Positions 38-846 of a stretch of DNA of 40,019 nt are shown one piece after another. The stretch is taken from IMG/VR virus record IMGVR_UViG_3300032320_001476, positions 1 to 40,019 of that record; one strand, written 5' to 3'. This DNA is from a virus (lineage: Duplodnaviria > Caudoviricetes). The position numbers were made by a program, and so were the translations under genes. The notes under the pieces were generated by a model. The model did no database searches, was not told the DNA's origin, and saw only the letters and a program-made list of their open reading frames with translations. Each line of letters starts with the position of its first letter. Position 1 is the stretch's first letter.

Positions 38-126
38 TGGTGGACCGTAAAGGAATCGAACCTAACTGCCGCCACCCTACATATTAATGGCAACGGATTT
101 ACAGTCCGCCGTAGGGAATACGATCC
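38..126 (-). tRNA. Atypical tRNA-Tyr(GTA)-like RNA with no canonical D-arm
   Basis: Acceptor GGATCGT/ACGGTCC-A-CCA, anticodon arm GCGGA-CTGTAAA-TCCGT, T-loop TTCGATT; only 10 nt between acceptor and anticodon stems. Confidence 0.75.
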
Positions 127-129
127 AAA

Positions 130-370
130 ACACACTCATGACCAGGAAGCCCTAGTCCATAAGCAGACTATGTCCGCTCATAAAGAATGTGTGTATTAAA
201 ACATTCTAACAACGCAGGCTATGCCTTACTACGCTATGAGTGTAGCCGTCCCTATAGAATGCTTTAATACGCTGTAATTTTTCACACTACAAGAAGTGCT
301 CCATCCTACAGGCCGCCCGTTCGTCCATGTTTTAAGTGCAGACTGGGACCTCGTTTCCCTTACACACTTT
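130..370 (-). ncRNA. Structured non-coding RNA region leading into the tRNA cluster (possibly manA-motif-like)
   Basis: Stems with G-U pairs on the minus strand: 193-208/255-270 (16 bp), 130-137/185-192, CTGTAG/TTACAG (306-311/272-277); family identity is from recollection only. Confidence 0.5.
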
Positions 371-373
371 GTA

Positions 374-538
374 CTAATTTACACTGTAAGTCGGACTTTT
401 ACGCATCGACTCTTGGTATACTTTAGCACGTTCAAACTTATCTTGAATAAGTTTTTGAAACTGCTCTTTAGTGAGAACATTTTCATAAGCCTGTTCAACA
501 ATACGTTCATTTAATTTTGAGTAATCTATCTTTTCCAT
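374..538 (-). CDS. Small hypothetical protein, 54 aa (MEKIDYSKLNERIVEQ...PTYSVN)
   Basis: Read manually (below ORF-track cutoff); AGGA RBS at 542-545, TAG at 374-376. Confidence 0.6.
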   Translation of the reverse strand: MEKIDYSKLNERIVEQAYENVLTKEQFQKLIQDKFERAKVYQESMRKSPTYSVN

Positions 539-550
539 TTTTCCTTTTCT

Positions 551-590
551 AAAAACAAAAAACCCCAGGGTTTTAATCCTAGGGTCCTTG
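551..590 (-). terminator. Intrinsic terminator, candidate attenuator
   Basis: ACCCTAGG-ATTAAAAC-CCTGGGGT stem followed by a T-rich tail on the minus strand. Confidence 0.8.
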
Positions 591-618
591 AAGTTTTGAA
601 ATGTATTAAGTTTGTTAC

Positions 619-762
619 TTAACCATCCCAGCCCTCCCGGACCCTGGTAATCTCTGGTAAACGATCATTTGTTAGACTATTAATCGTTAGCCAATAAGAG
701 GGCATAAAGCCTCCCAACTGGGCTATTGATTTACATTGTCTATGTAATGATACTGTTTGCAT
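619..762 (-). CDS. Putative leader peptide, 47 aa MQTVSLHRQCKSIAQLGGFMPSYWLTINSLTNDRLPEITRVREGWDG
   Basis: ATG 762 to TAA 619, between a consensus promoter and a terminator; contains AGGGTCC complementary to the terminator 5' arm. Confidence 0.6.
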   Translation of the reverse strand: MQTVSLHRQCKSIAQLGGFMPSYWLTINSLTNDRLPEITRVREGWDG

Positions 763-817
763 TTTGCTTCTTCTTAAACCTTTTTAAATTTGCTAGCGGA
801 ATTGCTAACTTGTTCTT

Positions 818-846
818 ATTGTAGCGCCTTGCTACACCTTTGTCAA
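818..846 (-). promoter_or_regulatory. Sigma70-type promoter for the leader/tRNA operon
   Basis: TTGACA (841-846)-N17-TACAAT (818-823). Confidence 0.8.

Follow-up and report, generated by a model that had tools for sequence, protein, structure and literature searches.

The known leader-peptide attenuators trpL, hisL, pheL, thrL, ilvL and pheM/pheST include multivalent leaders (thr, ilv) and one leader, pheM, that controls a translation-supply gene. A T-box binds a single uncharged tRNA directly and needs no ribosome. The closest known system to the locus described here is the uORF attenuator of mycobacterial whiB7 (wblC). According to the consulted sections of PMC10274678, stalling in this uORF leads to antitermination, the M. 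smegmatis uORF contains 19 of the 20 amino acids, a single Trp codon is enough for sensing, loss of the start codon raises basal expression, and the uORF is reported to be enriched in alanine rather than selected for full coverage.

The purpose of phage tRNAs is a long-standing question, with codon bias, replacement of degraded host tRNA and counter-defence as the answers on offer. The counter-defence role, as presented in the main texts of PMC11555353 and PMC10264068, explains why a phage would supply tRNAs once the host's pools have been cut, and a strong promoter is described there as driving the T5-like tRNA-Tyr; the strings "attenuat" and "leader" occur in neither main text, and the consulted part of PMC2965389 holds no phage or tRNA-gene case. 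Our literature search, outside of which lay subscription papers and supplements whose catalogues could list such sequences, returned no report of leader-peptide control of tRNA genes. tRNA genes under leader-peptide attenuation would be a known type of mechanism with a new output.

The window, by which we mean the whole stretch of DNA analysed, is an entire virus contig of 40,019 bp that encodes rIIA, rIIB, the ribonucleotide reductase small subunit, ClpP, AhpC and an AhpD-like protein. The nearest cultured-phage proteins to its rIIB are about 49% identical (PA5oct/Paride group), and contigs of relatives are up to 364 kb long. A permuted two-piece tmRNA lies at 7248-6761 on the minus strand and ClpP at 10554-9988; since the tmRNA is of the betaproteobacterial type, the host is presumably betaproteobacterial.

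Table 1. Features of the leader locus and its downstream region (strand and position in the window).
Feature	Position	Strand	Remarks
sigma-70-type promoter	818..846	-	-35 at 846-841, -10 at 823-818; TTGACA-17-TACAAT
short 5' hairpin	792..809	-	at the predicted transcript start
leader ORF, 47 codons	619..762	-	codons 2-37 = 759-652
conserved hairpin within the leader ORF	660..688	-	candidate RNA polymerase pause hairpin
antiterminator hairpin	581..645	-	645-639 with 587-581, 637-634 with 593-590, inner hairpin 630-597
intrinsic terminator	551..589	-	5' arm common to the antiterminator; conserved
54-aa ORF	374..538	-	first gene past the terminator; in many relatives, not all
conserved structured RNA motif, ~110 nt	262..370	-	between the terminator and the first tRNA
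tRNA-Tyr(GUA)-like gene	38..126	-	atypical D-arm region; likely the first of an array lost at the contig end

A preliminary description of this DNA had proposed that a consensus promoter, a 47-codon ORF with a weak RBS and an intrinsic terminator at 551-590 form an attenuator sensing any tRNA, and every element of this parts list is present on the minus strand. The promoter matches 11 of 12 consensus positions; the 47-amino-acid ORF is present and holds every codon that had been named, 35 different sense codons and, with the start Met left uncounted, still all 20 amino acids; the terminator is a hairpin (589-558) followed by a U tract; and AGGGTCC (645-639) is complementary to GGACCCT (587-581). 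The antiterminator, which had been given as only 7 bp, is in fact a three-helix hairpin of about 65 nt (645-581) that includes the stop codon. Initiation signals are indeed weak: the 5' hairpin is followed by an A-rich region without a clear Shine-Dalgarno sequence, an SD-like word occurs in only 41 of 103 relatives, and the leader starts no more than 13 nt from the -10 box in 36 of the 103. Promoters of similar type also stand ahead of the relatives' leaders. The leader ORF matches no family in Rfam, Pfam, PHROGs or Atlas. AhpC and AhpD-like genes lie at 2464-965 on the minus strand, and downstream of them is a consensus promoter-like site of their own (924-896), just upstream of the leader promoter, from which a second transcript may enter the leader.

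Judged by its sequence, the locus is a promoter, a leader that keeps all 20 amino acids ahead of the predicted switch point, and an antiterminator sharing the 5' arm of the terminator. Ribosome-coupled attenuation giving feedback on tRNA supply is the best reading of this arrangement and in our judgement a probable one. A ribosome past codon 37 would cover the 5' strand of the antiterminator (645-639), so that, as the folding predicts, the terminator forms and transcription stops at about position 551. With the ribosome delayed at codons 2-37, or absent, the stronger antiterminator would form, and the polymerase would go on to transcribe the 54-aa ORF, the structured RNA and the tRNAs. The phage tRNAs would speed leader translation again, closing a negative feedback on tRNA supply, and the hairpin at 688-660 may pause the polymerase so that the ribosome catches up. 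On this model, slow reading of any kind of codon would likely raise the phage's output of its own tRNAs. Candidate triggers are tRNA nucleases of the host, tRNA decay driven by the phage, starvation that lowers host tRNA, and uncharged tRNA; the anticodon-nuclease defence named in the preliminary description is one candidate among several, plausible in the light of PMC11555353 and PMC10264068.

The trp/his-type layout that had been claimed for the locus holds: a short leader ORF lies between a promoter and an intrinsic terminator with its stop codon shortly upstream of the latter, and the antiterminator shares the terminator 5' arm; the conserved hairpin inside the ORF is a candidate for a pause hairpin coupling polymerase and ribosome. 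However, the logic differs, as untranslated trp/his-type RNA terminates via 1:2 pairing and the untranslated phage leader is predicted to read through. Moreover, the trp/his-type leaders contain a run of regulated codons and control a biosynthetic or synthetase operon, whereas the phage leader contains all 20 amino acids in one or two copies each, without a run, and its output is tRNA arrays. With T-boxes the locus would share the sensing of tRNA status and a terminator/antiterminator switch, but it has no T-box motif or specifier stem: neither a T-box nor a riboswitch match to the leader was found in Rfam. Like whiB7, as far as it is described in the consulted sections, the phage leader places a near-complete amino-acid set upstream of the switch, and the polarity of whiB7 on start-codon loss is the polarity predicted here. 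By the same description, the two are set apart by whiB7 being bacterial and controlling a transcription factor, and by the phage leader having phage tRNA genes as its output, packing its coverage into 30-50 codons and tracking the downstream tRNA set. Nor does the phage leader lie upstream of whiB7/wblC, being followed by the 54-aa ORF without a Pfam match and then by tRNAs. It resembles both whiB7 and the trp/his attenuators, yet lacks defining features of both.

The leader belongs to a family in IMG/VR. A protein search with the leader peptide gave 8 homologues, and a peptide-pattern scan gave 31 loci, 29 with tRNAs downstream and the remaining two ending within 330 nt. The peptide-pattern set is biased toward the ORF, therefore DNA scans blind to the ORF were run. 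A terminator-only scan (120 of about 980 matches) provided 80 long-flank loci, 73 of them with at least 900 nt downstream; within these 120 matches, 30 of the 33 terminators that precede tRNAs have a promoter and, 20-40 nt upstream, the end of an ORF, as do none of the 40 terminators without tRNAs. The mean duplex energy of the terminator 5' arm with upstream RNA was -13.5 kcal/mol at the tRNA loci versus -6.2 kcal/mol at the non-tRNA loci, although 12 of the 40 non-tRNA terminators also reach -8 kcal/mol in this measure. A terminator-blind scan found a terminator in 89 of 107 distinct matches and the antiterminator in all 89 of those, and 16 of the 18 matches without a terminator have no tRNA nearby. 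With a scan for antiterminator plus terminator (119 of about 460 matches) the total reached at least 137 distinct elements. Excluding 8 elements without a promoter match or ATG frame, promoter and ORF are found in at least 129 distinct elements with a conserved terminator, represented below by 103 leaders of less than 85% identity. Both the ORF and the complementarity claimed for the window are thus kept in homologues, and in all 76 elements with at least 1,700 nt of downstream flank a tRNA lies within that distance. Because related leaders share ancestry, the pooled P values are too small. Two of the excluded elements (L178, L240) have short leaders with 10-11 amino-acid types and small tRNA groups, the first tRNA lying 8-10 nt past the terminator; two others left out of the counts (L156, L231) apparently start with GTG.

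Outside this set, no DNA-level homologue was found among 50,697 cultured phage records. In bacterial and archaeal genomes, none of the 120 matches listed of about 220 stands ahead of a tRNA array (no more than one tRNA follows), and the family leader was met only once among them (L362, with a 300-nt flank); this is a contig of a GTDB genome and likely a binned phage contig. In RNA data, 21 runs contain small shares of the stretch; the four viewed are contigs of relatives in which no ends or levels are readable, with pieces over the leader and over downstream parts alike.

The RNA switch is supported by comparison of the relatives. Their antiterminator is a multi-helix hairpin with the stop codon inside it or abutting it, with a mean energy of -23.6 kcal/mol versus -14.7 kcal/mol for the terminator, and it is the stronger structure in 101 of 103. 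Covariation of antiterminator and terminator, proposed as a check on the preliminary description, was found at two pairs among the 103 relatives (C-G 76 and U-A 19 at one; A-U 46, G-C 27 and G-U 22 at another), the remaining five core pairs being near-invariant and in part fixed by the search patterns used. Core pairing is kept in 96.3% of 350 cells with 19 two-sided changes (0 of 500 shuffles). The core occurs in all three frames relative to the ORF (51/44/8), therefore it is the RNA, not the peptide, that is kept there. Covariation and folding together predict that antiterminator and terminator are mutually exclusive. The hairpin inside the ORF is conserved as well: GATCG lies on its 3' arm in 61 of the 77 leaders that have GATCG, its closing pair covaries (G-C 31, G-U 16, A-U 8), and its mean z is -1.4 versus synonymous recoding.

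We folded the leader with a ribosome at successive positions in an equilibrium model, in which the RNA was assumed free from 9 nt past the first base of the A-site. In the window the model gives read-through with the ribosome at codons 31-37 and termination from codon 38 onward. The flip falls between E37 and I38, right after the twentieth new amino acid (codon 37), a coincidence that depends on the assumed 9-nt footprint and on folding at equilibrium. With the ribosome on the stop codon the terminator forms in 52 of 52 leaders; averaged over these leaders the modelled flip lies 9-12 nt ahead of the antiterminator, and the last new residue lies most often 10 or 12 nt ahead of it (39 of 103, with partly shared ancestry). 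Codons 2-37 of the window ORF contain 20 of 20 amino acids and 30 distinct codons. The codons proposed to be sensed all occur in the ORF, but Arg AGG/CGG, Thr ACC and Gly GGT belong to codons 39-47 and cannot be sensed in the model because they lie in or behind the antiterminator.

The amino-acid content is the second line of evidence. In the window ORF alone, the presence of all 20 amino acids has P=0.015 against random ORFs of the same composition and P=0.02 against phage gene windows (400 draws per control). The codon diversity proposed earlier as a mark of the leader fares unevenly: 35 distinct codons have P=0.0075 against genes but P=0.08 against random ORFs, and we dropped this count as stand-alone evidence. 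Among the 103 representatives, all 20 amino acids (start Met excluded) are present in 68, against 2.0 expected for random ORFs and 2.1 for genes; the ORF-blind set taken by itself gives 23 of 50, and among peptides less than 40% identical it is 9-14 of 22-25 versus 0.3-0.4 expected (five random orders). Trp is absent from 1 of 103 leaders versus 53 expected at random, and Cys from 13 versus 28. Where the sole copy of a residue has changed (132 times in 42 disjoint pairs), the partner has that residue elsewhere in 116 cases versus 67 expected, and amino-acid types found solely in the tail number 40 versus 158 by codon shuffle. On the level of isoacceptors the excess is modest (25.5 versus 24.2 expected of 32 wobble classes). 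A pooled odds ratio of 1.8 for codon-to-anticodon tracking was rejected, as it arises between classes and not within them. For the claim that any tRNA is sensed, the signal is thus strong at the level of amino acids but modest for isoacceptors, with no clear tracking within classes, and "pan-amino-acid" describes the leader better than "pan-tRNA". Taken together, the sequence comparisons indicate that the leader is genuine and conserved, and that selection acts on it in a distinctive way.

The tRNA cluster claimed downstream is represented in the window by the single atypical tRNA-Tyr-like gene, and the array is deduced from relatives, many of which have tRNA-Tyr first at a similar distance. 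This gene scores 27 bits as tRNA-Sec in Rfam, below the cut-off of 47, and is missed by ARAGORN; similar genes are annotated as tRNA-Tyr or pseudo in KVP40-group phages. The 54-aa ORF has no Pfam, PHROG or Atlas match. The RNA motif is present in 51 of 94 relatives with at least 500 nt downstream (57 pattern matches, 6 inside tRNAs) and has no Rfam match over the stretch; further hairpins are predicted at 260-130 on the minus strand, between the motif and the tRNA-like gene.

Across 48 loci whose arrays are large or complete, the downstream tRNA is absent for 15 of the 26 residues missing from leaders versus 98 of the 934 residues present (odds ratio 11.6; 0 of 5000 permutations); for the other 11 of the 26 such a tRNA is present, and some Tyr genes escape ARAGORN. 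At 5 of 18 re-scanned loci (L191, L192, L207, L214, L219) a second leader stands ahead of an upstream Glu/Tyr/Asp block, and these second leaders carry all or most of the residues that the main leader lacks. Internal promoters that match at least 11 of 12 positions are common in the arrays (89 in 47 arrays versus 4 antisense and 3 shuffled), therefore the control may be partial. A promoter of at least 10/12 lies between terminator and first tRNA in 23 of 75 loci, and 548 of 1157 tRNAs precede the first promoter past the terminator. Through these internal promoters, part of each array probably escapes the switch, which may govern about the first half of the array or set a level rather than act as on/off.

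Three of the nine cultured phages analysed share this layout but not the sequence. Two leaders (37 and 25 codons) occur in Ralstonia phage RsoM2USA and three (28, 20 and 27 codons) in Erythrobacter phage vB_EliS-L02; in these five leaders 33/36, 21/24, 17/27, 15/19 and 22/26 codons match their own tRNA block (P<0.001 for each of the five, with blocks delimited after data inspection); just 0-7 codons match the sister blocks. KVP40 has a 37-codon leader with 19 amino-acid types, and six of its relatives including nt-1 keep the leader with 17-19 types and the stop codon 28-31 nt ahead of the terminator. The antiterminators of these analogues are less strong, and most of them form only while the transcript is partial; because the terminator is mostly kept at equilibrium, kinetic control would be needed. 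The third vB_EliS-L02 leader shows no pairing with its terminator arm. No matching leader was found in the other six phages, Paride, XacN1, Xoo-sp13, Mendera, Slickus01 and T5, or ahead of two RsoM2USA tRNA blocks; the first of the detectors used recovers 98 of 100 family members. Since analogues exist in nt-1 (Vibrio natriegens) and vB_EliS-L02 (Erythrobacter), the idea is testable in cultured systems.

One could argue that the leader gauges ribosome loading or transcription-translation coupling in general (initiation rate, growth state or antibiotics), with tRNA supply as one minor input, and the 20-amino-acid content matters little. The naked RNA indeed favours read-through, with an antiterminator probability of 0.97 in the window and above 0.5 in 70 of 103 relatives (it is not favoured in the other 33), therefore any translation failure would switch the leader on; the weak initiation signals fit such a gauge too, and whiB7 answers to many stresses, in the consulted account of PMC10274678. 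However, it leaves unexplained why single rare residues are retained by compensation, why they lie ahead of the switch and why leader content matches the tRNA block, and we consider this reading unlikely.

It is less likely still, to the point of being improbable, that the product of the ORF works as a small protein, or as an arrest peptide with a conserved D-R-T-P-E-like end stalling the ribosome on one specific signal. Homologous proteins exist, and immediately ahead of the switch both the D-R-x-P-E motif and a Trp are widely conserved. Yet the peptides diverge below 40% identity with their composition kept, codon changes among them are 440 non-synonymous versus 183 synonymous, the peptide not being conserved as protein, the D-R codons coincide with an arm of the covarying RNA hairpin, and many members lack the motif (GATCG is in 77 of 104). 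Least likely of all is that the leader acts as a structured non-coding element or small RNA under the control of a protein or another RNA, with the ORF incidental or untranslated: the strong fold (z -4.7 in the window) would suit it, but the frame is open in 206 of 210 elements, all-20 content is 30-fold above chance, indels in multiples of three make up 46 of 87 ahead of the antiterminator versus 15 of 70 behind it, and Rfam gave no riboswitch or T-box.

If attenuation with feedback on tRNA supply is true, a tRNA-shortage switch would report directly when the phage needs tRNAs, and leader content would predict the tRNAs sensed; the 47-codon leader with all amino acids would be a compact reporter of tRNA health. 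A wider proposal, which we hold tentatively and rate as slightly less probable than its contrary, is that many unrelated phages carry self-auditing tRNA blocks, each gated by a leader that spells the amino acids served by its block and co-evolves as tRNAs move between blocks, an on-demand counter-defence against any tRNA-cutting immunity without recognition.

Two minor observations concern the leaders themselves. In vB_EliS-L02, leaders 2 and 3 (L405:8502-8735, L405:10033-10294) are followed by one tRNA and then a strong terminator, and for leader 2 a pairing is predicted that spans tRNA-Lys and joins the post-stop sequence to this terminator. The 103 family leaders, which share ancestry, avoid NNT in four-codon boxes (GCT, CCT, ACT and GTT at 6-12%) and favour NNT in two-codon boxes as well as GAG, unlike phage genes; these preferences may sharpen one-codon-one-tRNA sensing.
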